The notes under the pieces: generated by a model
Told to the model about the DNA's origin: nothing
Databases searched by the model: none
Seen by the model: only the letters and a program-made list of their open reading frames with translations
Part shown: in pieces, positions 588-14,778 of the stretch
Layout: each line of letters starts with the position of its first letter
Numbering within the stretch: position 1 is the stretch's first letter
From: Propionibacteriaceae bacterium
GTDB lineage: Bacteria; Actinomycetota; Actinomycetes; Propionibacteriales; Propionibacteriaceae
Length of the DNA: 64,000 bases
Reading direction: 5' to 3'
NCBI GenBank assembly: GCA_035717205.1
Contig: DASTIW010000006.1
Span: forward strand, 1,417 to 65,416
Translations under genes and position numbers: made by a program

Positions 588-2375
588 ATGAGCTCTCGAG
601 TGCTGACCGCCGTGGCTTGGCCGTACGCGAACGGCCCACGGCACATCGGCCACGTGTCCGGGTTCGGCGTGCCGTCGGACGTCTTCTCGCGCTTCATGCG
701 GATGAGCGGCCACGACGTCTTGATGATCTCGGGCACCGACGAGCACGGAACTCCAATTCTGGTGCAGGCAGAGCGTGAGCAGCTGTCGACGCGGGAGACC
801 GCGGACAAGTACAACCGGGTGATCGTGGAGGACCTTCAGGGTCTCGGGTTGTCGTACGACCTGTTCACCCGAACCACCACCCGAAACCACTACCAGGTGG
901 TGCAGGACCTCTTCCTTGGCCTGCACCGAAACGGCTATGTGGTGCCGAAGAAGGCCATGGGCGCCGTGAGCCCGTCCACCGGACGGACGCTGCCCGACCG
1001 CTACATCGAGGGCACCTGCCCGATCTGCGGGTACGACAGCGCCCGTGGCGACCAGTGCGACAACTGCGGCAACCAGCTCGACCCCATCGACCTGATCTCC
1101 CCCCGGTCCCGGATCAACGGGGAGACCCCGAAGTTCGTCGAGACGGAGCACTTCTTCTTGGACCTTCCGGCCCTGGCCGGATCGTTGGGCAGCTGGCTGT
1201 CAGCTCGGACCGACTGGCGACCCAACGTGTTGAAGTTCAGCCAGAACCTGCTCGAGAACCTGCGACCCCGGGCCATCACCCGCGACCTCGACTGGGGCGT
1301 GCCGGTCCCGCTCGACGGCTGGCGTGACCAGCCGATGAAACGGCTATATGTCTGGTTCGACGCCGTCATCGGCTATCTCTCCGCGTCGGTGGAATGGGCC
1401 AAGCGCACCGGAGACCCCGAAGCCTGGCGCGAGTGGTGGACCAACCCCGACGCCCGCGGCTACTACTTCATGGGCAAGGACAACATCGTCTTCCATTCCG
1501 TCATCTGGCCGGGCATCCTGCTCGGCCACAACGGTCGCGGTGATCATGGTGGCACTGTTGGTCCGCTCGGTGACCTGAGCCTTCCCGACGAGCTGGTGTC
1601 CAGCGAGTTCTTGACCATGAGCGGGTCCAAGTTCTCCACCAGCCGTGGAAAGGTGATCTACGTCGGCGACTTCCTCAAAGACTTCGGCCCTGATGCGCTG
1701 CGCTACTTCATCGCGGTGGCCGGCCCGGAGAACCAGGACACCGACTTCACCTGGGAGGAGTTCGTCCGCCGGACCAACTTCGAGCTCGCCAACGAGTGGG
1801 GAAACCTGGTGAACCGCTCGGTGTCGATGGCCCACAAGAACATTGGCGCCATTCCGGCTGCGACCGATCTTCGCGACGTTGACGCAGAACTGCTGGCGAC
1901 CTCCCAGCGCTCCTTCGACCTGGTCGGGGATCTGCTGAAGCGCAGCCGGTTCAAGCTCGCCGCGGGTGAGGCGATGCGGCTGGTCTCGGCCGCCAACAAG
2001 TACATCTCGGACACCGAGCCGTGGAAGCTCGCCGCTGACCCGGCTCGCCGCGACACGGTGCTGCATACCGCGTTGCAGGTGGTATCCGACGCCAACACGT
2101 TGCTGACGCCGTTCCTGCCGCACGCAGCCCAGCAGGTACACCAGACGCTCGGTGGCACCGGTGTGTGGGCGGCGCAGCCGGAGATCCGGACCGTCACCGA
2201 GGCCGGGGGACCTGAGTACCCCGTGCTGATGGGCGAGTACGCCGCGGAGCAGGCCCGCTGGGCCAGCACCCCGATCGAAGTGGGCCGGCCGCTGCAGAAG
2301 CCGACACCGCTGTTCACCAAGCTGGACGAGAAGCTGGGCCGGACCGGTCCCGACTGGGCGCCACTGGAGGTCTGA
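588..2375 (+). CDS. metG: Methionine--tRNA ligase
   Basis: [16 protein letters not shown] (HIGH), GTDEHG, Zn knuckle [30 protein letters not shown] (KMSKS variant). ATG 588 follows TAGGGT (575-580), so probably leaderless. Confidence 0.97.
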
Positions 2376-2411
2376 CGGATTTTCCGTAGATCACCGATAT
2401 CGGGGGTTTCG

Positions 2412-2465
2412 CCGGGATATCCCTGTCTGCCCGGATAGCCTGTGGAACCCGGATAGCCTGTCCAG
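2412..2465. repeat. Three imperfect 18-bp tandem repeats upstream of the glycan cluster
   Basis: ccgggatatccctgtctg / cccggatagcctgtggaa / cccggatagcctgtccag at 2412, 2430, 2448. Confidence 0.8.
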
Positions 2466-2513
2466 CCTGGCGCGCCGGGTATCGAATAGCCCAGGTCAGA
2501 AGGAGGTGTCGGG

Positions 2514-4859
2514 ATGCACGTTGCCCTGGTGTCGGAGCACGCCAGTCCGCTGGCGGTGCTGGGAGGGGTGGACGCGGGCGGACAGAACGTCCATGTGGCT
2601 GCACTGGCCGCCGGTCTGGCAGCCGGCGGCGAGCGGGTCACGGTCTACACCCGGTTCGACAACCTCGCGCTGCCGGCTCAGCTGCGTACGGCGCAGGGGT
2701 ATGACGTGGTTCATGTGCCGGCGGGTCCGGCGCAGCCGCTGCCCAAGGACGAGCTTCTCGGCCACATGCCTGACTTCGGGCGGTTCCTTCGAGGCTCCTG
2801 GCAGCAGGACCGCCCGGATGTGGTGCACGCGCACTTCTGGATGTCCGGGGTGGCGGCTGTCGAGGCAGCCGGGCCGCTGGGGATACCGGTGGTGCAGACC
2901 TTCCACGCCCTCGGCTCGGTCAAGCGCCGCCACCAGGGCAGTGACGACACCAGCCCCTCGGCGCGGATCCGGCTGGAGACCGAGCTGGCCCAATCGGTGA
3001 GCCGGGTGCTGGCGACCTGCTCCGACGAGGTTGCCGAGCTGGTCCGGCTCGGCGTACCGGAGGACCGGGTGTCGGTGGTGCCGTGCGGTGTCGACCTGGA
3101 TGCCTTTGTGCCCCGAAGCCGCCCAGAAGCCAACGAACCCGCCGAAGGGAGCTCACGTCCGACCGCTCGGGTGGTGACGCTCGGCCGGCTGGTACCGCGT
3201 AAAGGCTTCGACACGGTGATCGAAGCGGTGGCCCAGCTGCCCGCGGTGGAACTGCTGATTGCAGGTGGTGGCCCGCCGGCGGAGGCCGGCACCGACCTTG
3301 AGCGGTCGCGGCTGCTCGAGGTGGCCGACCGGTGCGGAGTCGGTGATCGCGTCCGGCTGGTCGGCCAGGTGCAGCGGGCCGACGTGCCGGCGCTGCTGCG
3401 CTCCGCCGACGTCGTCGTCTGCGCCCCGTGGTACGAGCCGTTCGGCATCGTGCCACTGGAGGCCATGGCCTGCGGGGTGCCGGTGGTGGCCACGTCGGTC
3501 GGCGGGTTCCTCGACACCGTGGTCGATCGGGTCACTGGGCTGCTGGTGCCTCCGCGCGACCCGGAAGCCCTCGCTGGGGCGTTGCGCACGGTGCTCGGCT
3601 CCCCGCAGACCCGCCGGGCGATGGGTACGGCGGGACGCCGGCGAGCTGAGCAGCGGTACAGCTGGACCCAGGTGGCCGCGGACACCGTCACGGTGTACCG
3701 ACAGGTGCTGGCCTCGGCGGGAGGCCCCGTCAGTGCGGCCGCACCGCCGGCCAACGAGCCGACGGAGGCGATTCGCGGGGCCGCCGAAGGCTTCCCACCT
3801 GAGCGGCCGCGGACGCGCCTTCGGAACGAGCCATTGCCCACCCAGCTGCATCGCGTGGCCGCTCGACCGGCGATCCGGCGGGCGGTGGTGCTGGGCGGCG
3901 CAGGCTTCGTCGGGTCCCATCTCTGTGACGCGCTGGTGGCGGACGGCACCGCCGTCATCTGCGTCGACAACTTCCTCACCGGAGCCAAGGACAACGTGGC
4001 CGACCTAGTCGGCTCCGGCCTGTTCGAGCTGGTGGAGCATGACGTCAGCGAGCCCTTCGACGGAGATCTCTGCGCCGTCGGTCAGACCGACCGCCGGCCG
4101 CTGGACGTCGTGTTCCACCTCGCCTCGCCGGCGTCTCCGCTGGACTACCAGCGGTATCCGATCGCGACCCTCCATGCCGGCTCTCGCGGCACCGAGTTCG
4201 GGCTGAGGATCGCGGCCGAACAAGGCGCCCGATTCGTGCTCGCGTCCACCAGCGAGGTGTACGGAGACGCCGAGGTCCATCCGCAGCCCGAAGGCTACTT
4301 CGGCAACGTCAACCCGATCGGGCCGCGCAGCGTCTACGACGAGGCGAAACGGTACGCCGAAGCTCTCACCTTCGCCTACCGTCGGGCCCGCGGCGTGGAC
4401 ACCGCAGTCGCTCGGATCTTCAACACCTACGGCCCCCGGATGCGGCCCGGCGATGGCCGGATGGTTCCGACCTTCATCCGCCAGGCGCTGGCCGGGGAAC
4501 CGATGACGGTCACGGGCACCGGCACGCAGACGCGCTCGCTGTGCTACGTGAGCGACACCGTTGCCGGCCTGCTCGCGCTTGCGCGGTCGGAGCATCCGGG
4601 CCCGGTGAACATCGGCAACCCAGACGAGCAGACCGTCGCCGATCTCGCGCGACGGGTGGCATGCCTGACCGGTTCGGTGTCGCAGGTCCAGCTGATCAGC
4701 GCGGTGCCGGACGACCCGCAACGGCGATGCCCCGACATCAGCCGGGCCATCCGAGATCTTGGATGGGCGCCGAGCGTTGGCGCGAACGAGGGTCTGCAGG
4801 CGACGATCGAGTGGTTCGTCGAGACGGCACAGCTCACATCCGGAAATCACCTGAAGTGA
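2514..4859 (+). CDS. Fusion: GT4 (MshA-like) glycosyltransferase + NAD-dependent epimerase/dehydratase (UDP-glucuronate decarboxylase-like)
   Basis: N-terminal part: HVALVSEHASPL, DAGGQNVHV, HAHFWMSG, GRLVPRKG, PWYEPFGIVPLEAMA. C-terminal part: GGAGFVGSHL, HLASPASP, ASTSEVYGD, YDEAKR (YxxxK), RIFNTYGPRM, DDPQRRCPDI. SD AAGGAGG upstream; no internal stop. Confidence 0.9.
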   Translation: MHVALVSEHASPLAVLGGVDAGGQNVHVAALAAGLAAGGERVTVYTRFDNLALPAQLRTAQGYDVVHVPAGPAQPLPKDELLGHMPDFGRFLRGSWQQDRPDVVHAHFWMSGVAAVEAAGPLGIPVVQTFHALGSVKRRHQGSDDTSPSARIRLETELAQSVSRVLATCSDEVAELVRLGVPEDRVSVVPCGVDLDAFVPRSRPEANEPAEGSSRPTARVVTLGRLVPRKGFDTVIEAVAQLPAVELLIAGGGPPAEAGTDLERSRLLEVADRCGVGDRVRLVGQVQRADVPALLRSADVVVCAPWYEPFGIVPLEAMACGVPVVATSVGGFLDTVVDRVTGLLVPPRDPEALAGALRTVLGSPQTRRAMGTAGRRRAEQRYSWTQVAADTVTVYRQVLASAGGPVSAAAPPANEPTEAIRGAAEGFPPERPRTRLRNEPLPTQLHRVAARPAIRRAVVLGGAGFVGSHLCDALVADGTAVICVDNFLTGAKDNVADLVGSGLFELVEHDVSEPFDGDLCAVGQTDRRPLDVVFHLASPASPLDYQRYPIATLHAGSRGTEFGLRIAAEQGARFVLASTSEVYGDAEVHPQPEGYFGNVNPIGPRSVYDEAKRYAEALTFAYRRARGVDTAVARIFNTYGPRMRPGDGRMVPTFIRQALAGEPMTVTGTGTQTRSLCYVSDTVAGLLALARSEHPGPVNIGNPDEQTVADLARRVACLTGSVSQVQLISAVPDDPQRRCPDISRAIRDLGWAPSVGANEGLQATIEWFVETAQLTSGNHLK

Positions 4860-4862
4860 ACT

Positions 4863-4906
4863 ACCTATAGGTTGGCCTACCCTAGGCAAAAATCTGCGAC
4901 GCAGAT
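4863..4906. promoter_or_regulatory. Three adjacent palindromes in an AT-richer spacer (candidate operator/promoter)
   Basis: ACCTATAGGT 4863-4872; GCCTA-ccc-TAGGC 4875-4887; ATCTGCG-a-CGCAGAT 4892-4906. Confidence 0.45.
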
Positions 4907-4927
4907 CTGAATGGCGGAGGTGGACCT

Positions 4928-6553
4928 GTGCGGGTACTCGGCGTGAACGCCGTCTTTCATGACTCGGCCGCGGCTGTCGTCGTCGACGGGCGCACCGTGG
5001 CGGCCGCTGAGGAGGAGCGGTTCAGCCGGCGCAAGCACGGCAAGCGGCCCGTGCCCTTCTCCACCTGGGAGCTGCCGGAACAGGCGATCGAGTGGTGCCT
5101 GCAGGAGGCCGGGTTGGCGCCCGGGGACCTCGACGCGGTGGCGTACTCCTACGACCCGGCGCTGGTGGACCACGACTCCGGCGGCCTCGACCCGTCCTGG
5201 GAGTCGCTGCGAACCACCTACGCCACTCGGGCGCCGCACTTCTTGAAGACTCTGCTGCCGACGTACTCACCGGAGATCTTCCGTTTCGTCCGGCACCACG
5301 TCGCCCACGCGGCCTCCGCCGGCCTGGTCGCGCCCTTCGGCAACTGCGCCGTCCTGGCCGCCGACGGTCGGGGTGAGTCCACCTCCATGCTGGCCGGTGA
5401 GTACCGCGATCAGAAGCTGGACATTCTCGCCGCCCAGTCCCTGCCGCACTCCCTCGGACTCCTGTACGAGGACCTCACCGAGCATCTGGGGTTCGCCCGG
5501 TCCAGCGACGAGTACAAGGTGATGGCGCTCGCCTCCTATGGCACGCCGCGGTTTCGTGACCGGCTGGCCAAGCTGGTGTACGCCACCGGGGATGGCGGCT
5601 TCCGGACCGAGCCCATCGAGTGGGAGGCACTGGCCCCCCGTCGCCGCGGCAGCGAGGAGTTCGACGAGCGGCACGCCGACCTGGCCGCCAGCGTTCAGCT
5701 CGTCTTGGAGGAGGTGCTGTTGCTGCTGCTGCAGTGGCTGCACCAGCGGACGGGATCGCCGTACCTGGCGCTCGCCGGTGGGGTGGCGCTCAACTGCGTG
5801 GCGAACACCCGGCTGCTGGCGGAGGGGCCGTTCGAGGACATCTGGGTTCAGCCGGCCTCCGGTGACTCCGGCACCGCGCTTGGCGCGGCGCTGGCCGTGG
5901 CTGCCGACAACGGCGACACCATCGAGCCGATGACCACAGCGGCCCTCGGCCGGGGTTGGAACGACGAGGCGGTCGAGGCTGCGCTGCGGACGGCGCGGGT
6001 CGGATTCGAGCGGCCGCCGAACATCGCTGTCGCCGCGGCGGAGGTGATCGCGGGCAACGGCGTGGTGGCCTGGTTCCAAGGTCGCTCCGAGTTCGGTCCG
6101 CGGGCGCTGGGCCACCGATCGCTGCTGGCCCACCCGTCGCGGGCAGACAACGTCGAGCGGCTGAACGACATCAAGGGCCGCGAGCAGTTCCGCCCGGTCG
6201 CCCCGATGGTGCTGGCCGACCGGGCCGCTGAGATCTTCACCCGCGGACCGATTCCCAGCCCCTACATGCTGTTCGTGCACGACGTCGTACCGCAGTGGCG
6301 TGAGCGGCTGCAGGGTGTCACCCACATCGACGGAACGGCACGGATCCAAACCGTCGAGCCGAGCGACGACCCACTGATGGCCGAGCTGCTGACAGCCTTC
6401 GACCGGCTCACCGGCGTGCCGGTGGTGGTGAACACCAGCCTGAACACCGCGGGGCGTCCGATGGTCGACAGCCCGCGTGACGTCTTGGAGCTCTTCGGGT
6501 CGGCGCCGGTTGATGCGCTGGCCATCGGGCCCTTCCTGGTACGGCGGCCGTGA
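4928..6553 (+). CDS. O-carbamoyltransferase (NodU/CmcH/TobZ family)
   Basis: HDSAAA, EEERFSRRKH, HHVAHAAS, DGRGE, EYKVMALASYG, LAGGVALNC, GRSEFGPRALGHRS, KGREQFRP, HIDGTARIQTV, NTSLN. Confidence 0.95.
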   Translation: MRVLGVNAVFHDSAAAVVVDGRTVAAAEEERFSRRKHGKRPVPFSTWELPEQAIEWCLQEAGLAPGDLDAVAYSYDPALVDHDSGGLDPSWESLRTTYATRAPHFLKTLLPTYSPEIFRFVRHHVAHAASAGLVAPFGNCAVLAADGRGESTSMLAGEYRDQKLDILAAQSLPHSLGLLYEDLTEHLGFARSSDEYKVMALASYGTPRFRDRLAKLVYATGDGGFRTEPIEWEALAPRRRGSEEFDERHADLAASVQLVLEEVLLLLLQWLHQRTGSPYLALAGGVALNCVANTRLLAEGPFEDIWVQPASGDSGTALGAALAVAADNGDTIEPMTTAALGRGWNDEAVEAALRTARVGFERPPNIAVAAAEVIAGNGVVAWFQGRSEFGPRALGHRSLLAHPSRADNVERLNDIKGREQFRPVAPMVLADRAAEIFTRGPIPSPYMLFVHDVVPQWRERLQGVTHIDGTARIQTVEPSDDPLMAELLTAFDRLTGVPVVVNTSLNTAGRPMVDSPRDVLELFGSAPVDALAIGPFLVRRP

Positions 6554-8088
6554 GCCGGTCGTCGCTGGTGGACTACACGGTGGTGATTCCCACCATCGGC
6601 CGCCCGAGCCTGACCCGACTGCTTGAGGCGGTCGCTGACGCCGCCGCCAGCGGGCCGCCGCCGCGGCAGATCGTTGTCGTTGACGACCGCCGCACGTGCC
6701 AGCCCCTGGAGCTGACGGACACCTCGATCCCGATTACTGTCCTCCGCAGCGGCGGCCGCGGCCCGGCGGCGGCCCGCAACGCCGGCTGGCGAGCAGCCAC
6801 CACCGAGTGGGTGGCCTTCCTCGACGACGATGTGCTGGTCAGCCCCGACTGGTGCGCCCGGCTGTGCGATGACCTGCGTGACCTGCCGCCGGAGACGGCC
6901 GGCTCGCAGGCCGTACTTCGGGTGCCACCGCCCGACGGGCGGCGACCCACCGACGACGAACGGCGCACCGTCGGACTCGTTGACGCTCCCTGGATCACCG
7001 CCGACATGGCCTACCGGCGAGCTGCCCTGGCCGCCGTCGACGGCTTCGACGAGCGGTTCCCGCGCGCCTTCCGTGAGGACTCCGACCTGGCCCTGCGGAT
7101 CGTTCAGGCCGGCTTCGAGGTGGTCTGGGGCAGCCGGCAGACTGACCACCCGCTGCGGAACGGGTCGTGGACCGCCAGCATCCGGGTGCAGGCGGGCAAC
7201 GCCGACAACGCACTGCTGCGGGCCAAGTACGGTCGACACTGGCGTCAGCTGATCCATGAGCGTCCCGGTCGACTGGGACGCCATCTGCTGACGACGGCGG
7301 CCGGGACCGCGACTGTTGCGGCAGCACTGGCGTCCCGGCCCCGGTTCGCGGCCGCGACCGGAGCCCTCTGGACGTTGCTGACCGTCCAGTTCGCCGCGCC
7401 GCGGATGGCAGCGGGCCCCCGGACGCTCCGCGAGCTCTCGGTCGTGGCATTCACCAGCACCCTGATTCCGCCGGTGGCGGTCTATCACCGGGCGGGTGGG
7501 GCGTGGCGGTTCCGCCGGGTCGACCCGGTTCCGGCGGTGGCTGAGGAACGGCGTCGTCCGTCCGGCCCGCGGGCCGTGCTGTTCGACCGCGACGGCACGC
7601 TGATCGTCAATGTCCCGTACCTTGCGGACCCGGCCGGCGTGCAGCCGGTCCCCGGCGCTCGGAAGGCGGTCGAGGATCTGCGGGCCCGCGACATCCGGAT
7701 CGGAGTGGTCAGCAACCAGTCCGGGGTCGCCAAAGGCCTGATCGATGCCGACCAGCTCGCGGAGGTGAACGCCCGGGTCGTGGAGCTGCTGGGGCCCTTC
7801 GACACCTGGCAGCAGTGCCTGCACGACTCCGGCGATGGCTGCGAGTGTCGCAAACCCGCACCTGGCATGGTGCTCGCCGCCGCCAAGTCGCTCGCCGTCG
7901 ATGTAGCTGACTGCGTTCTGATCGGCGACACGGCAGCGGACGCCCAGGCTGCACTGGCAGCCGGTGCACGGGCGGTGCTGGTGACAACTCAGGGCGTCGG
8001 TGGACCACCCACCTTCCGGCCGGCCGGGGTCCCGCTCGCCTCGACGCTCACCGAGGCGGTGGCGGTCGCCGTCGGGGCGTCCCGGTGA
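6550..8088 (+). CDS. Fusion: GT2 glycosyltransferase + membrane segments + HAD-IIIA heptose-1,7-bisphosphate phosphatase (GmhB-like)
   Basis: VVIPTIGR, GPAAARNAG, AFLDDD (DxD), GFDERF; hydrophobic stretch; then LFDRDGTL (DxD), SNQSG, CLH..CECRKP Zn motif, IGD. Confidence 0.9.
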   Translation: MSRSSLVDYTVVIPTIGRPSLTRLLEAVADAAASGPPPRQIVVVDDRRTCQPLELTDTSIPITVLRSGGRGPAAARNAGWRAATTEWVAFLDDDVLVSPDWCARLCDDLRDLPPETAGSQAVLRVPPPDGRRPTDDERRTVGLVDAPWITADMAYRRAALAAVDGFDERFPRAFREDSDLALRIVQAGFEVVWGSRQTDHPLRNGSWTASIRVQAGNADNALLRAKYGRHWRQLIHERPGRLGRHLLTTAAGTATVAAALASRPRFAAATGALWTLLTVQFAAPRMAAGPRTLRELSVVAFTSTLIPPVAVYHRAGGAWRFRRVDPVPAVAEERRRPSGPRAVLFDRDGTLIVNVPYLADPAGVQPVPGARKAVEDLRARDIRIGVVSNQSGVAKGLIDADQLAEVNARVVELLGPFDTWQQCLHDSGDGCECRKPAPGMVLAAAKSLAVDVADCVLIGDTAADAQAALAAGARAVLVTTQGVGGPPTFRPAGVPLASTLTEAVAVAVGASR

Positions 8089-9143
8089 CAGCACCAGGCG
8101 CCGGCGGGCGGGTGTTGATCTGCCGGCTCGACAGCATGGGCGACGTGCTGCTGGCAGGTGGCGCGATCCGTGCGGTGGCCCGTTCGGCCGAGGTCACACT
8201 GCTGGTCGGTCCGCAAGGCAGATCCGCTGCGGGCCTGCTCCCCGGCGTCGGTCGGCTACTCGAGTTCGCGGCACCATGGGTGCCGCTGAAGCCCGAACCA
8301 GTGGACCGCGACGCAGTTGATCGCCTGGTGCGGACAGTAGCGAGCGCAGACGTCGATGCCGCCTTCATCCTCACCTCCTTCCACCAGTCGCCGTTGCCCC
8401 TCGCGCTGCTGCTGCGGCTGGCCGGGGTGCCATGGATCGGCGCCTGCAGTGTGGACTACCCGGGCGCCCTTCTTGACCTGCGGCACAGTGTCCACGACGG
8501 CCTGCACGAGGCGGAGCGCAACCTGTCCCTGGTGACGGCGGCCGGCTTCGCCGCGGACCCCCGCGGCGCCGCTCTGGACGTCCGCCGTCCGCTACCCGAC
8601 GTGGCGCAGTACACCGCGGCGGGCCCGTACGTCGTGCTGCACCCGGGGGCTGCCACCGCTGCCCGGCGCCCGAGCGCGGAGTGTGCCACCGCAATCGCAG
8701 CAGCGCTCCGCAACGACGGTCGCCGCGTGCTGGTGACCGGCTCGGCGCAGGAAGCGGCGCGCACCGCTCGGGTCGCCGTCGCCGGGGCCGAGGACCTCGG
8801 GGGACGGCTCGACCTCGCAGAGCTCGCGGCAGTGCTCGCCGGCGCCGACACTGCCGTGGCGCCGAACACCGGTCCCGCGCACCTCGCGGCCGCGGTCGGT
8901 ACGCCCGTGGTCTCGCTGTTCGCCCCGGTAGTGCCGAGCGGGCGGTGGCGGCCGTACGGGGTGCCGGTGGTGCTGCTCGGCGACCAGCATGCGCCCTGCC
9001 GCGACAGCCGGGCGCGTACCTGCCCGGTTCCCGGACACCCCTGCCTGGACGGCATTCGTCCCGCCGACGTGGTGCAGGCCGTCTCTACCCTGGCCGGCAG
9101 CAGCCTGTCGGCCATCCCGGCACCGATCGGAGATTCACTGTGA
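8085..9143 (+). CDS. Glycosyltransferase family 9 (heptosyltransferase-like)
   Basis: RLDSMGDVLL, VVLHPGA, NTGPAHLAAAVGTPVVSLFAP. Confidence 0.9.
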   Translation: MTAPGAGGRVLICRLDSMGDVLLAGGAIRAVARSAEVTLLVGPQGRSAAGLLPGVGRLLEFAAPWVPLKPEPVDRDAVDRLVRTVASADVDAAFILTSFHQSPLPLALLLRLAGVPWIGACSVDYPGALLDLRHSVHDGLHEAERNLSLVTAAGFAADPRGAALDVRRPLPDVAQYTAAGPYVVLHPGAATAARRPSAECATAIAAALRNDGRRVLVTGSAQEAARTARVAVAGAEDLGGRLDLAELAAVLAGADTAVAPNTGPAHLAAAVGTPVVSLFAPVVPSGRWRPYGVPVVLLGDQHAPCRDSRARTCPVPGHPCLDGIRPADVVQAVSTLAGSSLSAIPAPIGDSL

Positions 9144-9703
9144 TCCAGAACCATCTCAGCGCCCTGGCTCGAGCAGTGGAGCAGAACCTTCCGGCCGCAG
9201 CCACGGTGACTGACTGGGGCAACCAGCTCGCGGACGTGCTCCGGGCGGGCGGACGGCTGCTCGCCTGTGGAAACGGTGGCAGTGCCGCCGAGGCGCAGCA
9301 CCTCACCGGCGAGCTGGTCGGGCGGTTCCGTCACGACCGGCAGGCCTACTCCGCCATCGCGCTGCATGCCGACACCTCCTCGCTGACCGCGATCCTCAAC
9401 GACTACGGGGTGGAGGAGATGTTCGCCCGCCAGGTACGCGCGCATGGCCGGCCTGGTGACGTGCTGGTCGCCTACTCGACCAGCGGCTGCAGTAGCAACG
9501 TCTTGGCGGCGGTGAAGGCAGCCCAGGAGATCGGCGTTACCGTCTGGGCGCTGACCGGCCCGGCGCCGAACCCGCTGGCCTCGATCGCCAACGACGCCGT
9601 CGCCGTCGAAGCGCCGTCGACCGCCACGGTGCAGGAGATCCACCTGGCGCTGACTCACGGCCTCTGCCTGGCCCTGGACGCGGCCCTCGGGGTGCCGACG
9701 TGA
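9140..9703 (+). CDS. gmhA: Sedoheptulose-7-phosphate isomerase (SIS domain)
   Basis: GNGGSAAEAQHLTGEL, NDYG...FARQV, GDVL..STSG, VQEIH. GTG 9140 overlaps the GT9 stop (GTGA). Confidence 0.9.
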   Translation: MIQNHLSALARAVEQNLPAAATVTDWGNQLADVLRAGGRLLACGNGGSAAEAQHLTGELVGRFRHDRQAYSAIALHADTSSLTAILNDYGVEEMFARQVRAHGRPGDVLVAYSTSGCSSNVLAAVKAAQEIGVTVWALTGPAPNPLASIANDAVAVEAPSTATVQEIHLALTHGLCLALDAALGVPT

Positions 9704-11244
9704 CCGACCCTGCCCAGCCGACCAGCCCGGCGCGCATGCACGAGACCGCCGAGTCAACTCAGGGCGCCTCCTGGACCGGAAGCGGCCGAGGACCGCTGGT
9801 GGTCGTCGGCGACTCCCTGCTGGACGTGGACCTGGTGGGAACCGCCGACCGGCTCAGCCCGGAAGCCCCGGTGCCGGTCGTTGACGTCGCCCAGCGGCTG
9901 AACCGCCCCGGCGGCGCCGCGCTGGCCGCGCTGATGGCTGCCCGGAGCGGCTCGGAGGTCGTGCTGATCACGGCACTGGCCGGGGACGAGGCGGCGCGGC
10001 TGCTGCTGACCCTGCTGCCGGGTGTCGAGGTCGTGCCCATCCCGCTTCAGGGCCGGACGGTGTGCAAGACCCGAGTCCGGGCATCCGGACAGCCGATGCT
10101 GCGGCTCGACTGCGGTAACGGCAGGGCGGCGAACCTGCCGCTACCGGACCGGGCGGTCCAGCTACTGGCCGAGGCCGGAGCCATCCTGGTCTCCGACTAC
10201 GGCCGCGGGGTCACCGCCATCGACAGCCTGCGAGCCGAGCTTGCGCAGCAGACACGGCGGATCCCGGTGGTCTGGGACCCCCATCCGCTCGGCACGACGC
10301 CGGTTGCCGGCATCGCGCTGGCAACCCCCAATGCGGCAGAGGACGCGGCGCAGGCTCGAGCGGACGCAGGCATCGCCGTGCACTCCACCGCCGGGGTGCA
10401 GCACAGCGCATCCGATCCGAGTAGCGCGGAGATGCGGTGCCGGCGGTGGCATGCCGCCGCGGTCGCGGTCACGGCGGGGGAGCAGGGGGCACTGCTGAGT
10501 CAGAGGTCCACCGGCGCGCCGACCCGGGTGCCGGTTCCCGAGCACGTCGCGTGGACTTCGCCCCAGCCGCCGGACACCTGCGGCGCCGGCGACCGGTTCG
10601 CCAGCGCCGCGGCTGTCGCGCTGCGCAACGGGGCGACTGTGCTCGACGCCGTCCGGTCCGGCGTCGAGGAGGCCACCCGGTACGTCTTCGACGGCGCAGC
10701 GGCAACCCTGTCCAGTGGCGGGGACCCACATGCGCTGGTGGTCGGCGAGGACCGTCCAGCCGTGACGGAGGCGGCGACGACGGCCGCCGACCTGCAGGCG
10801 CTGGCGCAGCAGGTCCGCCGGCGCGGCGGTCGGGTGGTCGCTACCGGCGGCTGCTTCGACCTGCTGCACCGCGGACACCTGGCGCTGCTGGAGCATGCCC
10901 GGGCGCTGGGGGACGCGCTGGTGGTCTGCCTGAACTCAGACGCGTCGGTCCGCCGAGCCAAGGGAGCTGACCGGCCGGTGATGTCCCAGCAGGACCGGGC
11001 ACGTCTGCTGAATGCGCTCGCGGTGGTCGACGCCGTGATCATCTTCGACGAGGACACCCCGGTACGGCTGCTGGCCGAGCTCAGACCCGATATCTGGGTC
11101 AAGGGCAGTGACTACGCCGGCAGGGAGCTACCGGAGGAGTCCGTAGTGCAGCGGTACGGCGGTCAGATCGTGCTGGTCCCGACCGTACCGGGCTACTCGA
11201 CCAGCCACCTCGTCTCCACGGTTCGGCTCACCGCAACGCAGTGA
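9700..11244 (+). CDS. hldE: Bifunctional heptose-7-phosphate kinase / heptose-1-phosphate nucleotidyltransferase (HldE/RfaE-like)
   Basis: PfkB part: GDSLLD, RLSPEAPVPVV, PGGAA, SDYGRG, DTCGAGD. Transferase part: GCFDLLHRGH, LNSDASVRRAKGADRP, FDEDTP, VKGSDY, GYSTS. Confidence 0.92.
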   Translation: MTDPAQPTSPARMHETAESTQGASWTGSGRGPLVVVGDSLLDVDLVGTADRLSPEAPVPVVDVAQRLNRPGGAALAALMAARSGSEVVLITALAGDEAARLLLTLLPGVEVVPIPLQGRTVCKTRVRASGQPMLRLDCGNGRAANLPLPDRAVQLLAEAGAILVSDYGRGVTAIDSLRAELAQQTRRIPVVWDPHPLGTTPVAGIALATPNAAEDAAQARADAGIAVHSTAGVQHSASDPSSAEMRCRRWHAAAVAVTAGEQGALLSQRSTGAPTRVPVPEHVAWTSPQPPDTCGAGDRFASAAAVALRNGATVLDAVRSGVEEATRYVFDGAAATLSSGGDPHALVVGEDRPAVTEAATTAADLQALAQQVRRRGGRVVATGGCFDLLHRGHLALLEHARALGDALVVCLNSDASVRRAKGADRPVMSQQDRARLLNALAVVDAVIIFDEDTPVRLLAELRPDIWVKGSDYAGRELPEESVVQRYGGQIVLVPTVPGYSTSHLVSTVRLTATQ

Positions 11245-11290
11245 ACCACACCGCGGCCCGAAAGATGACACATCACCACAGGAGGATTCG

Positions 11291-12025
11291 ATGAACACCA
11301 CCACGCTGGCGGCGGCTGAGCCCGTCGCCTCCGCACCACCCAAGCTCGGTACCATCCTGGTCACCGGCGGCGCCTCGGGCCTGGGAGCGGCCACCGTGGA
11401 GGCGGTGCTGGCCCACGGCGGTACGCCGCTGGTGCTGGACCGTGCCACGCCGCGGGACGGCGTCGAGGCCCAGCAGGTGGATCTGTCGGACTCTGCGGCC
11501 GCCGAGCGGGCGGTCCGCGAGATCGTTGCCGCAAACGGAAATCGGCTGGACGGCGTCTTCACCGCGGCGGGCATCGACTCCTGCGGGCCGCTGGACGGCG
11601 TCAGCACCGAGGACTGGGAACGGGTGCTGCGGGTCAACCTGTTCGGAACTGCCGCAGTCGTCCGAGCGGCGCTGCCCTACCTGCGCGAGTCACAGGGGCG
11701 GGTGGTCACCTGCGCTTCGACGCTGGGCATCAAGGCGGTCGGCGACGCGACCGCGTACTGCGCCTCCAAGTTCGGCGTGGTGGGCTTCACCCGAGCACTG
11801 GCTGCCGAGACGGCCGGATCGGTCGGCGTAACGTTGCTGATCCCCGGAGGCATGCACACCGCGTTCTTCGACGACCGGACCCCGCAGTACAAGCCGCCTG
11901 CTGACGCCCGGCTCAACCAGCCCGCCGACGTCGCCGCCGCCGTCGTCTTCGCCCTCAGCCAGCCCGCGGGCTGCGAAATCCGTGAGCTGGTCGTGTGCTG
12001 CTCGACCGAGTCGTCATGGCCCTGA
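11291..12025 (+). CDS. SDR family oxidoreductase
   Basis: TGGASGLG, AAG, YCASK (YxxxK); SD GGAGG upstream. Confidence 0.92.
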   Translation: MNTTTLAAAEPVASAPPKLGTILVTGGASGLGAATVEAVLAHGGTPLVLDRATPRDGVEAQQVDLSDSAAAERAVREIVAANGNRLDGVFTAAGIDSCGPLDGVSTEDWERVLRVNLFGTAAVVRAALPYLRESQGRVVTCASTLGIKAVGDATAYCASKFGVVGFTRALAAETAGSVGVTLLIPGGMHTAFFDDRTPQYKPPADARLNQPADVAAAVVFALSQPAGCEIRELVVCCSTESSWP

Positions 12026-12047
12026 CCGGTCCGCGAAGTGCCGCAGG

Positions 12048-13052
12048 GTGACCCCTGCTGATCGCCGTCCGGTGCGTCGCGCGCTGGTGCTGCGGGCGCT
12101 CGGCCTGGGTGACCTGCTGACCGCAGTACCGGCGCTCCGCGCCATTCGGCGCGCGTTCGCCGGGGCCGAGGTGACCCTGGCGTGTCCGCGGGTCCTGCAG
12201 CCGCTGGTCGAGCTGACCGAATCGGTGGACCGGCTCGTGGACGTCCCCGGGCTGGGCGCCCTCGGGCAGCCCGACCCGACTCCTGATCTGGTGGTCAACC
12301 TGCACGGGCGCGGCCCAGAGAGCATCCGCGACCTGATGGGTACCGGTGCCGCCGAGGTATGGTCGCACCGGCACCCGGAGTTTCCGCGGCTCGATGGCCC
12401 GACCTGGCGAGCCGACGAGCATGAGGTCCAGCGGTGGTGTCGGCTGCTGGAGCACTACGGGGTGCTCGCCGACCCGGCGGAGCTGACGATCGCCCGGCCT
12501 GCCCGGGCGAGTCCGGCTGCCGGCGCCGTCGTGGTTCATCCGGGCGCCAAGGACCCCGCTCGGCGCTGGCCCGTCGACCGGTTCGCGACGGTGGCCCGGG
12601 CCCTGGCGGACCGCGGCTACCGGGTGGTGCTGACCGGATCCACCGCGGAGCGGCCGTTGGCCGGCCAGCTCGCCGAGCTGGCTGGACTGGGCCCCGAGGC
12701 AGTGCTGGCCGGGAAGCTGGACCTGGCGCAGCTGGCGGCCCTGGTCGCCGACGCCCGACTGGTGGTGTGCGGTGACACCGGCGTCGCCCATCTGGCCAGC
12801 GCCTATGCGACGCCCTCGGTGCTGCTGTTCGGTCCGACCCCGCCGAGTCTGTGGGGACCACCCGAGAGTGGCCCGCACGTCGTGCTGTGGTCTGGCCGGG
12901 CGGGCGACCCGCACGCCCGCACACCCGACACCGGCCTGCTGGAGCTCAGCCCGACCGACGTCCTGTCCGCCCTCCCGACGGACTCCGAGCTCGCACCCCC
13001 ATCCCAACCCAAGAGCCCCACCACGCAGCCCGCGAGGTCGGCGCACGGCTGA
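12048..13052 (+). CDS. Second glycosyltransferase family 9 protein
   Basis: LRALGLGDLLTA, VHPGAKDPARRWP, GDTGVAHLASAYATPSVLLFGPT; start at GTG 12048 inferred. Confidence 0.9.
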   Translation: MTPADRRPVRRALVLRALGLGDLLTAVPALRAIRRAFAGAEVTLACPRVLQPLVELTESVDRLVDVPGLGALGQPDPTPDLVVNLHGRGPESIRDLMGTGAAEVWSHRHPEFPRLDGPTWRADEHEVQRWCRLLEHYGVLADPAELTIARPARASPAAGAVVVHPGAKDPARRWPVDRFATVARALADRGYRVVLTGSTAERPLAGQLAELAGLGPEAVLAGKLDLAQLAALVADARLVVCGDTGVAHLASAYATPSVLLFGPTPPSLWGPPESGPHVVLWSGRAGDPHARTPDTGLLELSPTDVLSALPTDSELAPPSQPKSPTTQPARSAHG

Positions 13053-13077
13053 GCGTGCGTGTGATCCGGCAGGGCTG

Positions 13078-14778
13078 TCAGGTGGTCGACGGCTGACCAA
13101 GAGCGGACGCGATCTCGGTCCTCGCCCGCTGCAGCAGGTCCCGGGCCTGTCGCCGCGCCGCCACCAGGTCGGCACTGAGAGCCGGCGGCATCCGGGCCTC
13201 CAGGTAGCACTTGAGCTTCGGCTCGGTGCCCGACGGCCGAACAACCACCGACAGCCGCTCGCCGACCAGCCGTACCGCGTCAGTTGGCGGCAGGTCCGCC
13301 GAGCCGGCGGCGAGATCCAGCACCTCAACCGGATCGCCGACCAGCGAGGAGGGCGGTTGCGCCCTTAGCCGGCTCATGGCGTCGGCGATAATGCCCAGGT
13401 CGGTCACCCGGACCGAGAGCTGATCGGTCTCATGGACCCCATACGATCGGGCGACCTCGTCCAGACGGTCGGCCAGGCTGAGGCCGGCACTCTTCAGCTC
13501 GGCGGCCAGGGCGAGCACGCGGAGCAGCGCCGAGATGCCGTCCTTGTCCGCAACGGCGGCCGGGTCGACGCAGAACCCGAGTGCCTCCTCGTACCCGAAC
13601 ACCAAGCCGGGCACCCGGGCGATCCACTTGAACCCGGTCAGGGTGCACGCGAACGGCTGACCGTACGCGGCTGCCATCTTCGCAAGCAGTGCGCTCGAGA
13701 CGATCGAGCAGGCGTAGGTTCCCCGCATCCCTCGGCGCAGGGCGTCGTCGGCCAGCAAGGAGCCGAGCTCGTCACCGCGGAGCATCCGCCATCGCCCGTC
13801 AATGGGCACCGCGGCCGCGCAGCGGTCAGCGTCGGGGTCATTCGCCACCACCAGGTCCACGTTCTCGGCCACCGCCTGCGTCAAGGCCAGGTCCAAAGCG
13901 CCGGGCTCCTCCGGGTTCGGGAAGGCCACCGTCGGGAAGGTCGCGTCCGGCTGCGCCTGCTCCGCCACCATGCTCGGCTGACCGAACCCGGCTCCCCGGA
14001 CAGCGCGTGCGACCACTTCGGCGCCGACGCCGTGCAACGGCGTGTACACCCAGGAGACTCGACGGGGCGCGCTCGCCGGAACCAGCGCCGCGACCCGGTC
14101 GAGGTAAGCCTGCACGAGCTCGTCACCGAGAACCGTGTAGGTGGCCGAACGCGGAATCGCGCTCAACGGCTGCCGGGTGGCCGTCTCGATCTGCTCGGCT
14201 ATCCTCCGGTCCACCGGATCCACGATCTGGCAGCCGTCGCCCAGGTACACCTTGTAGCCGTTGTCCCGCGGCGGATTGTGTGACGCCGTCACCACCACCG
14301 CGGCCACGCAGCCAAGCTGGCGGATGCCGAACGCGATCACCGGTGTGGGTATCGGCGCGCTCGTCAACAACGGGTCGAAGCCGGCGCCCGCCATGACCTC
14401 GGCGGTGTCGGCTGCGAAGACGTCTGACTTGTGCCGTGCATCGAACCCGATCAGCACCCGCCCGCCGGCCAGCCCCTGCTGGCGCAGGTACGCCGCGAGC
14501 CCGGCGGCGGTCTGAGTGACGACCACCCGATTCATCCGGTTCGGCCCGGGTCCGAGCGGCCCACGAAGGCCGGCCGTTCCGAACCTCAGCCGACCTGAGA
14601 ACGCGTCGACCAGCTCGGCTTCCGCGTGCGGATCGCCGGCATTCGCCTTCGCTGTCAGATCGGTGAGCATCGCGGTGGTATCAGGGTCGGGATCTTCGAC
14701 TCGCCACCGGTCGATCCGTGCCCGGAGCTCCGCGGACCACGCCGGTCTGCCGGGGTCCGTCCCGACTGCTCGGGTCAC
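13078..14778 (-). CDS. Phospho-sugar mutase (phosphomannomutase/phosphoglucomutase family)
   Basis: FGTAGLRG, TASHNP (phospho-Ser), DPDADR (metal loop), GYEEALG, RPSGTEPKLK. Confidence 0.95.
   Translation of the reverse strand: MTRAVGTDPGRPAWSAELRARIDRWRVEDPDPDTTAMLTDLTAKANAGDPHAEAELVDAFSGRLRFGTAGLRGPLGPGPNRMNRVVVTQTAAGLAAYLRQQGLAGGRVLIGFDARHKSDVFAADTAEVMAGAGFDPLLTSAPIPTPVIAFGIRQLGCVAAVVVTASHNPPRDNGYKVYLGDGCQIVDPVDRRIAEQIETATRQPLSAIPRSATYTVLGDELVQAYLDRVAALVPASAPRRVSWVYTPLHGVGAEVVARAVRGAGFGQPSMVAEQAQPDATFPTVAFPNPEEPGALDLALTQAVAENVDLVVANDPDADRCAAAVPIDGRWRMLRGDELGSLLADDALRRGMRGTYACSIVSSALLAKMAAAYGQPFACTLTGFKWIARVPGLVFGYEEALGFCVDPAAVADKDGISALLRVLALAAELKSAGLSLADRLDEVARSYGVHETDQLSVRVTDLGIIADAMSRLRAQPPSSLVGDPVEVLDLAAGSADLPPTDAVRLVGERLSVVVRPSGTEPKLKCYLEARMPPALSADLVAARRQARDLLQRARTEIASALGQPSTT

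Follow-up and report, generated by a model that had tools for sequence, protein, structure and literature searches.

In Streptomyces coelicolor the genes sco6179-6190 constitute the 12-gene cwg operon, cwgA-L, which has a mapped sigma-E promoter and is induced by vancomycin (Hong, Paget and Buttner 2002, as cited in Tran et al. 2019, PMC6767563). The products of cwgB-J are annotated, in this order, as transferase, transferase, dehydratase, transferase, (cwgF is not in the table), transferase, phosphoheptose isomerase, bifunctional synthase/transferase and transferase (PMC5839063), and cwgE has been described as a putative heptosyltransferase (PMC5882110). The product of the operon was treated as unknown in 2019 (PMC6767563) and still in 2026 (PMC13011467). 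The present analysis concerns a 64,000-nt stretch from a Propionibacteriaceae bacterium (assembly GCA_035717205.1, contig DASTIW010000006.1, positions 1,417 to 65,416), referred to in its full length as the window, and within it the region 2514-13052. The eight genes located there are very probably the host copy of an actinobacterial cwg-type operon, making ADP-D,D-heptose and UDP-xylose for a short carbamoylated heptose oligosaccharide.

Comparison of the open reading frame (ORF) listing with Pfam and NCBIfam models placed eight co-oriented genes on the + strand of this region, with GTGA start-stop overlaps at four junctions (6550, 8085, 9140 and 9700), in agreement with the genes named in an earlier, sequence-only reading of the same DNA. 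That reading had also mentioned similar clusters in other soil actinobacteria. In a scan of species-representative genomes, the best 80 loci were obtained, none of them from Streptomyces. In these loci the gene set is found in conserved order, over many orders and three classes of Actinomycetota, including Nocardia, Mycobacterium/Mycolicibacterium, Amycolatopsis, Prauserella, Propionibacteriaceae, Streptosporangiaceae, Geodermatophilaceae, Micrococcales, Acidimicrobiales and Euzebyales. Most often the genes are arranged as carbamoyltransferase, GT2-GmhB, GT9, (GT-like, GT4), GmhA, HldE, short-chain dehydrogenase/reductase (SDR), GT9, with genes for UXS and for UDP-glucose dehydrogenase (Ugd) nearby. 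Six core functions are present in 48 of the 63 loci with full flanks and all nine in 31; loci from Geodermatophilaceae are devoid of the carbamoyltransferase and of the SDR. In an even sample of the phylum the cluster was detected in 45 of 401 genomes (~11%), belonging to 28 of the 249 genera sampled. One locus from the genus of the host (L094, G419:C2:122000-141900) has the same order, with GT4, GT9a and HldE each aligning in two incomplete pieces, and may be either a decaying copy or the result of poor assembly.

The link with cwg comes from loci of one genus, probably Streptomyces (7-10 Mb, 72-76% GC), where UXS, carbamoyltransferase, GT2, GmhB, GT9a, GT-like, GT4, GmhA, HldE and GT9b are found in this order. 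The orthologues in these genomes are 44-66% identical, and L084 and L085 are two of the loci that match the cwg order. The arrangement fits the string of cwg annotations at every position, provided that the HisB-like GmhB is equated with the 'dehydratase' CwgD, as we infer. In a further probable Streptomyces locus (L083, G306:C1:6192000-6211900) the cluster stops halfway through GT2, after UXS and the carbamoyltransferase, and is regarded as truncated for this reason. In the sequence-only reading the product had been presented as a candidate uncharacterised glycoconjugate. The gene set itself was named in 2002, has been mapped to sigma-E and is distributed phylum-wide. It is therefore not a discovery of this window. 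The expectation of a small O-carbamoylated heptose glycan, glycolipid or solute, formulated in the same reading, is reasonable and survived the tests that were run, although the cwg operon had not been recognized.

The supply of the heptose donor can be assigned to three proteins. GmhA, the sedoheptulose-7-phosphate isomerase (9140-9703, +, cwgH-like), matches the Pfam SIS_2 domain at 90.5 bits and has the NCBIfam gmhA models as its best matches, at 163-173 bits, under their cut-offs. It keeps the GNGGS motif, H54/E58, the STSGCS phosphate loop and Q165/H173, residues whose metal-binding and catalytic roles we take to be those of E. coli GmhA. A longer ORF, 8681-9703, was rejected as the GmhA gene, its first 150 codons running out of frame over the GT9a gene; a start at GTG 9140 gives a normal GmhA of 187 aa. 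HldE (9700-11244, +, cwgI-like), the bifunctional heptose-7-phosphate kinase and heptose-1-phosphate adenylyltransferase, aligns to NCBIfam PRK11316 over residues 32-509 (273 bits). Its adenylyltransferase domain passes the cut-off of rfaE_dom_II (189.9 bits against 181.5), while the kinase domain, at 110.6 bits, stays below its cut-off of 345.

GmhB, the D,D-heptose 1,7-bisphosphate phosphatase, is found as the C-terminal part of a GT2-GmhB fusion protein (6550-8088, +), made up of a GT2 domain (residues 1-230), a three-helix linker (242-320) and the GmhB domain (340-512). Against the PDB, this HAD-IIIA domain scores 57-75 bits with GmhB structures and 30 bits with HisB. It contains the DRDGT nucleophile and a C423-x-H425-x5-C431-x-C433-RKP zinc loop, both invariant among 18 orthologues, and in an AF2 model of the whole fusion (pLDDT 85.7) it is matched by Foldseek to GmhB at TMt 0.77. 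The fusion is common, with more than 7,700 homologues. The epimerase HldD was not found in the host genome, which is 93% complete: the heptose_epim model reaches 98-103 bits against a cut-off of 274.6. The other extended SDRs of the genome are RmlB (454 bits) and two GalE proteins (320-325 bits), from which we conclude that HldD is missing; hence no L,D-epimerization is expected, and the heptose of the donor should be in the D,D form.

The first gene of the operon (2514-4859, +) encodes a 781-aa protein, in which a GT4 domain (residues 1-400) is followed by a UDP-xylose synthase (UXS) domain (residues ~455-781), combining cwgG-like and cwgA-like functions. For the latter domain human UXS1 structures score 330-333 bits (residues 2-322); the SDR family that comes next reaches 120 bits. 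What had been called a UXS-like enzyme in the sequence-only reading is thus UXS in kind, a bona fide UDP-glucuronate decarboxylase by sequence comparison, and is fused to the GT4. A candidate for the Ugd gene lies on another contig of the same genome, C38. By homology and conserved motifs, the operon most likely supplies ADP-D,D-heptose and UDP-xylose.

Several observations weigh against the identification proposed here. The claim of a complete heptose pathway, made in the sequence-only reading, agrees with the presence of all catalytic and metal-binding motifs, but only the adenylyltransferase domain of HldE passes an equivalog cut-off; with GmhA, the kinase domain of HldE and GmhB, the best-matching NCBIfam models all score below their thresholds. 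The nucleotide specificity of HldE is likewise a prediction. Its C-terminal motif reads GYSTS and is devoid of the arginine of STTR5, and orthologues have R, Y or H at that position, the motifs being GRSTT (21), GYSTT (14), GHSTT (11) and GYSTS (7); the STTR5 arginine is said to allow synthesis of CDP- and UDP-heptose (Tang et al. 2024, as summarized in PMC11461863). The probable orthology with cwg is deduced from annotation strings and from genomes that are probably, by their sequence features, Streptomyces. No sigma-E-type promoter was found in the window, and the published 29-nt cwg promoter is absent from L083-L086 at up to 7 mismatches. Within the host genus the cluster is patchy: of 24 congeners sampled, ~8-11 possess it, the count varying with the treatment of fragmentary hits, and it must therefore be dispensable. 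Finally, the literature up to 2026 reports no product isolated from any cwg cluster; searches on cwg and heptose, on actinomycete wall glycopolymers and on carbamoyl combined with gmhA returned no paper describing the product of the cluster.

Two GT9 proteins, GT9a (8085-9143, +, cwgE-like) and GT9b (ending at 13052, +, cwgJ-like), are the candidate heptosyltransferases. For GT9b two starts may be considered, GTG 11982, which would overlap the SDR gene by 44 nt, and GTG 12048. Both proteins are well above the Pfam GT9 cut-off of 22 bits (82.5 for GT9a and 108.3 for GT9b), and both families keep the catalytic Asp of their GD motif without exception (D20 and D44), in GT9b as part of a conserved LGLGD. 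Sequence likeness to WaaC, for GT9a, and to 3tov, WaaF and WaaC, for GT9b, is restricted to the donor-binding domain. The AF2 model of GT9a (pLDDT 90.8) was matched by Foldseek to WaaF, WaaC and the Veillonella GT9 3tov (1psw, 2gt1, 3tov) with TM 0.66-0.76.

These data also bear on the idea that the GT9s are protein O-heptosyltransferases, like AAH and TibC, which modify autotransporters in E. coli, with the other enzymes elaborating a protein-linked glycan. TibC-type enzymes are likewise GT-B proteins that take ADP-heptose as donor, TibC itself was recovered by Foldseek, and the N-terminal acceptor domains of the two GT9s have no sequence similarity to the enzymes of lipopolysaccharide (LPS) synthesis. 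The TM of TibC to GT9a is, however, only 0.50-0.55, lower than those of the LPS enzymes and 3tov, and TibC gave no sequence match to either GT9 at E<=1e-3. No conserved candidate substrate protein adjoins the cluster, and the three further transferases, the UXS and the carbamoyltransferase point to the stepwise assembly of an oligosaccharide. Protein heptosylation is accordingly regarded as improbable.

The nature of the acceptor can be approached from the GT4 domain. Its best solved relatives, aligned end to end, are the Tll1590 sucrose-phosphate synthase (SPS, 231 bits) and MshA of C. glutamicum (181 bits); PimA and PimB, which act on lipids, reach no more than 68-75 bits. The domain stays well under the NCBIfam cut-off for an MshA equivalog (239 bits against 462). 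It retains the equivalents of MshA K78 and R154, which we take to bind the phosphate of the acceptor, while those of Y110 and T134 are replaced by F and A. As judged from sequence, this kinship with enzymes using phosphorylated soluble acceptors, together with the conserved Lys and Arg, favors a soluble or inner-leaflet start of the synthesis.

Gene fusions provide further hints. The GT4-UXS fusion is rare, being found in ~6 other protein clusters out of 5.8 billion, all metagenomic, and in one locus of a Propionibacteriaceae metagenome-assembled genome (MAG), L006; in two genomes of the same genus as the host, GT4 and UXS are adjacent, separate genes. GT4-GmhA fusions of ~600-637 aa (P0150, P0155, P0158, P0162 and others) are found in many genomes, including Solirubrobacteraceae MAGs. 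Taken with GT2-GmhB, they represent two independent fusions of a transferase to an enzyme acting on heptose phosphates. The three types, GT2-GmhB, GT4-GmhA and GT4-UXS, would link transferases with enzymes supplying sugars.

One refinement of the proposed function follows these indications, and holds that the product stays in the cell, as a soluble, stress-induced heptose glycoside or oligosaccharide, started by the GT4 on a phosphorylated sugar or cyclitol, by analogy with the synthesis of sucrose-6-phosphate or GlcNAc-inositol-phosphate, extended by GT2 and the GT9s, and carbamoylated. We find this quite possible and adopt it tentatively. The SPS and MshA scores, the conserved K78 and R154 equivalents and the frequency of GT4-GmhA fusions speak for it, and so does the solubility of the eight proteins, none of which has a predicted transmembrane segment. 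The replacement of two of the four MshA phosphate-site residues speaks against it, and to our knowledge the GT9 enzymes with known acceptors act on lipid-anchored or protein acceptors.

The GT2 part of the GT2-GmhB fusion raises the other possibility, that the product belongs to the envelope, in line with the name cwg, as a heptose glycan linked to the wall or anchored by a lipid and built on polyprenyl phosphate or on a membrane lipid, whose priming, flipping and ligation are encoded elsewhere. In Foldseek searches, the GT2 domain with its three long uncharged helices is best matched by membrane GT2s, PcManGT, hyaluronan synthase (HAS), BcsA and ArnC. This helical region counts against a purely cytosolic product and in favor of an envelope one, as a lead provided by modeling rather than as a finding. 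The helices are not convincing membrane spans, since their mean Kyte-Doolittle hydropathy is only 0.5-1.4 and one of them contains a Glu conserved in most orthologues. The motif set of the domain (DDD, GGFDERF, ED.D) is presumably of the WbbL/GlfT type, which acts on lipid-linked intermediates; moreover the LPS heptosyltransferases, closest in fold to GT9a, act on a membrane-anchored glycolipid. The searchable literature did not bring up heptose among the constituents reported for wall glycopolymers of actinomycetes. On the whole we regard an envelope location as possible.

The genomic context is informative on the same question. No ABC exporter or other transporter, priming transferase (WecA/TagO-type), flippase, polymerase or LCP ligase accompanies the cluster, either in the 80 loci or in the window. 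This absence is at odds with an envelope component and agrees with a product retained by the cell, and is the reason why we lean towards a small product kept inside the cell or in the inner leaflet, and not towards a wall polymer that is exported.

The second gene (4928-6553, +, cwgB-like) encodes an O-carbamoyltransferase of the NodU/CmcH/TobZ type, composed of Kae1-like and YrdC-like domains (Pfam Carbam_trans_N 189 bits, Carbam_trans_C 214.6 bits). In the PDB it matches 7xb6, NovN, TobZ and GdmN at 278-310 bits, the alignments with NovN and GdmN being near full-length, and it remains below the NCBIfam NodU equivalog cut-off (202 against 1000). The seventh gene (11291-12025, +) encodes a classical SDR of 244 aa (adh_short 124 bits), found at the same position in 47 of 63 full-length related loci.

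Carbamoyltransferases of the NodU/TobZ type are typically met in the tailoring of antibiotics, and the biochemically characterized uses of heptose in actinomycetes are those in septacidin and hygromycin B (PMC9978623). A secondary-metabolite cluster of this kind, where heptose decorates a small bioactive molecule, was therefore considered. Against it, no scaffold genes (nucleoside, aminocyclitol, polyketide synthase or non-ribosomal peptide synthetase), resistance genes or exporters were detected by Pfam and NCBIfam in window positions 1-24000, in or beside the cluster, and no such genes are conserved in the related loci. The gene order is conserved across many orders and three classes, and one cwg member of S. 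coelicolor is stable enough to serve as a reference gene in reverse-transcription quantitative PCR. The flanks are also of housekeeping type: upstream lie genes for adenosine deaminase and methionyl-tRNA synthetase (MetRS); downstream, a convergent PGM-like gene and a purine nucleoside phosphorylase gene are followed by genes for a flavoprotein disulfide reductase, Sir2 and hemerythrin. We consider an antibiotic-type product very improbable. In a side observation, the MetRS ORF, listed at 504-2375, encodes 623 aa, ~28 residues more than its homologues of ~595 aa (95% query coverage), so that its true start is probably downstream of 504.

In the pathway that we propose, GmhA, HldE and GmhB would make ADP-D,D-heptose, and the UXS domain would convert UDP-glucuronate, provided by the Ugd encoded elsewhere in the genome, to UDP-xylose. 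Four soluble transferases, the retaining, SPS/MshA-like GT4, the inverting GT2 and the two inverting GT9s, would assemble a short oligosaccharide on the cytoplasmic side, the GT9s presumably adding alpha-linked heptose. The TobZ-type enzyme would then O-carbamoylate one hydroxyl, using carbamoyl phosphate and ATP, and the SDR may oxidize or reduce one position.

Regulatory sequences were looked for upstream of the operon (2376-2513, +) and in the spacer between the GT4-UXS and carbamoyltransferase genes (4860-4927, +). The upstream region was inspected for promoters, and no sigma-70, sigma-E (AAC...CGTCT) or SigF/SigB (GTTT-N14-19-GGGTA) promoter was found, even with a relaxed -35. It contains a GGGTAT hexamer (2478-2483), a GAAGGAGG ribosome-binding site ahead of ATG 2514, and a direct repeat of 13 nt, CCGGATAGCCTGT, whose two exact copies (2431-2443 and 2449-2461) follow each other with a periodicity of 18 nt; no further exact copy occurs in the 64 kb window. 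The repeat is a possible binding site for a regulator, as far as can be told from its sequence. A third, degenerate copy, CCGGGATATCCCTGT, immediately precedes the two repeats, and the repeat is not conserved in L006 or in L092, a locus from the same genus. No RNA elements were detected by Rfam in 2200-13300.

A different picture is obtained upstream of the carbamoyltransferase gene in the related loci. GTTT-N14-19-GGGTA, the SigF consensus derived experimentally in M. smegmatis (PMC4694148), is located 10-86 nt upstream of this gene in 17 of 48 loci, drawn from L001-L080, L092 and L094 (L003, near 8300, L014, L020, L028 and L062 are examples), against ~0.4 expected from background, with a spacing of mostly 15-16 nt. 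The consensus also precedes the GT4 gene in L092. These sites suggest that cwg-type operons outside Streptomyces are under the control of a general-stress sigma factor; no paper linking SigF or SigB with these genes was found in a literature search. In S. coelicolor, salt induces cwgA without induction of sigE (PMC13011467), which would fit a second, general-stress input. Both the consensus sites and the response to salt are in line with a soluble stress product. Conversely, the membership of the S. coelicolor operon in the sigma-E envelope-stress regulon and its response to vancomycin argue for an envelope component and against such a product, although sigma-E control of cwg may be specific to Streptomyces. 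In L083 a sequence located ~200 nt upstream of UXS, GGAACCGGTCCCCGCGGCGTCGGTCC, loosely resembles the published sigma-E promoter of S. coelicolor cwg.

The spacer of the window contains, beside a GGAGG ribosome-binding site, two palindromes. The first, ACCTATAGGT, at 4863-4872, upstream of the carbamoyltransferase gene, is a candidate operator by virtue of its sequence and recurrence. Eight loci, from several families, have a ACCTATAGG box with <=1 mismatch in the ~100 nt that precede their carbamoyltransferase gene, against a background of 33 hits in 3.37 Mb. Besides the window these are L004:1440, L006:2977, L026:8238, L028:8317, L052:8264, L080:8270 and L094:7202, the form of the box being (A/T)TACCTATAGG(T), and it directly abuts the -35 GTTT in at least 3 of the 8 loci. 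In the window the SigF/SigB site at this location appears degenerate and the palindrome kept. The second, ATCTGCGACGCAGAT, is a perfect 15-bp palindrome at 4892-4906, 22 nt upstream of the carbamoyltransferase start, the spacer being richer in AT; in the related loci no copy of it was found ahead of that gene.

A more specific proposal combines these elements: the cwg core may serve under general stress to make a soluble, carbamoylated heptose glycoside, and not a wall polymer. The GT4 would start on a sugar phosphate, the GT9s would extend the chain, and a SigF/SigB-type promoter beside the ACCTATAGGT operator would control expression in many lineages. This is speculative and rather unlikely. 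Under this proposal, and given how often GT4 is fused to GmhA, the acceptor of the GT4 is possibly a heptose or heptulose phosphate. If true, it would define a new class of actinobacterial stress metabolite and would give a physiological reason for a pool of ADP-heptose, an ALPK1 agonist, in monoderm soil bacteria.

The cwg product is among the few widely conserved actinobacterial glycoconjugates whose chemistry is still undescribed, and its donor, ADP-heptose, is tied in textbooks to Gram-negative LPS and is sensed by mammals through ALPK1. The copy in the window adds little when taken alone. What is particular or new here is the rare GT4-UXS fusion, the SigF/SigB-type consensus with ACCTATAGGT in relatives, and the likeness of the GT4 to SPS and MshA. 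The comparison of loci provides a number of handles, namely a D,D donor, a GT4 that looks suited to a phosphorylated soluble acceptor, the absence of export machinery traveling with the cluster, and, in numerous copies, the SigF/SigB-type promoter and the conserved palindrome. The product should therefore be looked for in the cytosol under general stress, and not only in the wall after vancomycin treatment.

The host genome is consistent with the description of the organism as an LPS-free actinobacterium. Its MetRS is 92% identical to that of a Propionibacteriaceae MAG, 86% to that of Microlunatus panaciterrae and 85-86% to those of Microlunatus and Friedmanniella; the host is thus a soil actinobacterium near Microlunatus. 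In the assembly (3.47 Mb, 48 contigs, 93% complete) neither LpxC nor the 3-deoxy-D-manno-oct-2-ulosonic acid (Kdo) transferase WaaA was detected, while both were found in the Gram-negative genomes used as controls; an LPS-like glycolipid was rejected as the product because these two enzymes are absent. Pfam and NCBIfam searches also agree with the earlier remark that no LPS, nucleoside, aminocyclitol or exporter genes are contained in the cluster. The genes for GmhA, HldE and the carbamoyltransferase are each present in single copy, and GT9a and GT9b are encoded by the only two GT9 genes of the genome. A small GT-like gene and a GT2 gene, which in other taxa lie inside the cluster, are located on other contigs. 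In the region given by C34:59738-61554 and C34:65253-66215, the former stands alone, adjoining an ABC sugar-uptake operon and ~4 kb from two tandem genes for SigB/SigF-like sigma factors.

When the locus is compared with known systems, the nearest is cwg of S. coelicolor: the inventory of functions and their relative order are the same (a 'dehydratase' of UXS type, carbamoyl and other transferases, a putative heptosyltransferase, the phosphoheptose isomerase, bifunctional HldE and one more transferase), and both are co-oriented operons of soluble enzymes. The operon of the window has 8 genes instead of 12, with GT4 and UXS fused, and no recognizable sigma-E-type promoter upstream; Ugd, the additional GT2s and the small GT-like gene are encoded on other contigs. 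With respect to the probable Streptomyces loci, GT2 and GmhB are fused here and separate there, and the SDR, present here, was not seen there. Tll1590 SPS and MshA of the SPS/MshA family align end to end with the GT4, which has the Lys and Arg of MshA and differs in two of the four residues of the MshA phosphate site; furthermore, the cluster GT4 is fused to UXS or GmhA, and does not stand alone.

The Gram-negative LPS pathway shares the same four-step route to ADP-heptose, with catalytic motifs kept, and GT9s with the WaaC/WaaF fold and catalytic Asp. It differs in its lipid A/Kdo machinery and HldD, both missing here, in the sequence of the GT9 acceptor domains, which are unrelated, and in the host, which is a monoderm in the present case. 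The LPS core of Pseudomonas aeruginosa bears 7-O-carbamoyl-heptose, and a gene for a NodU-family carbamoyltransferase lies beside waaC and waaF in the gene cluster for the core oligosaccharide. Compared by description, the two systems both encode a carbamoyltransferase together with GT9s and HldE, so that the Pseudomonas core represents a precedent for O-carbamoylated heptose; its product, however, belongs to LPS and is built in a different acceptor context. Septacidin and hygromycin B of Streptomyces, lastly, provide examples of ADP-heptose made by homologues of GmhA, HldE and GmhB in Gram-positive actinomycetes. Those clusters are strain-specific and include genes for a nucleoside or aminoglycoside scaffold and for its tailoring, whereas the operon described here is scaffold-free and distributed throughout the phylum.

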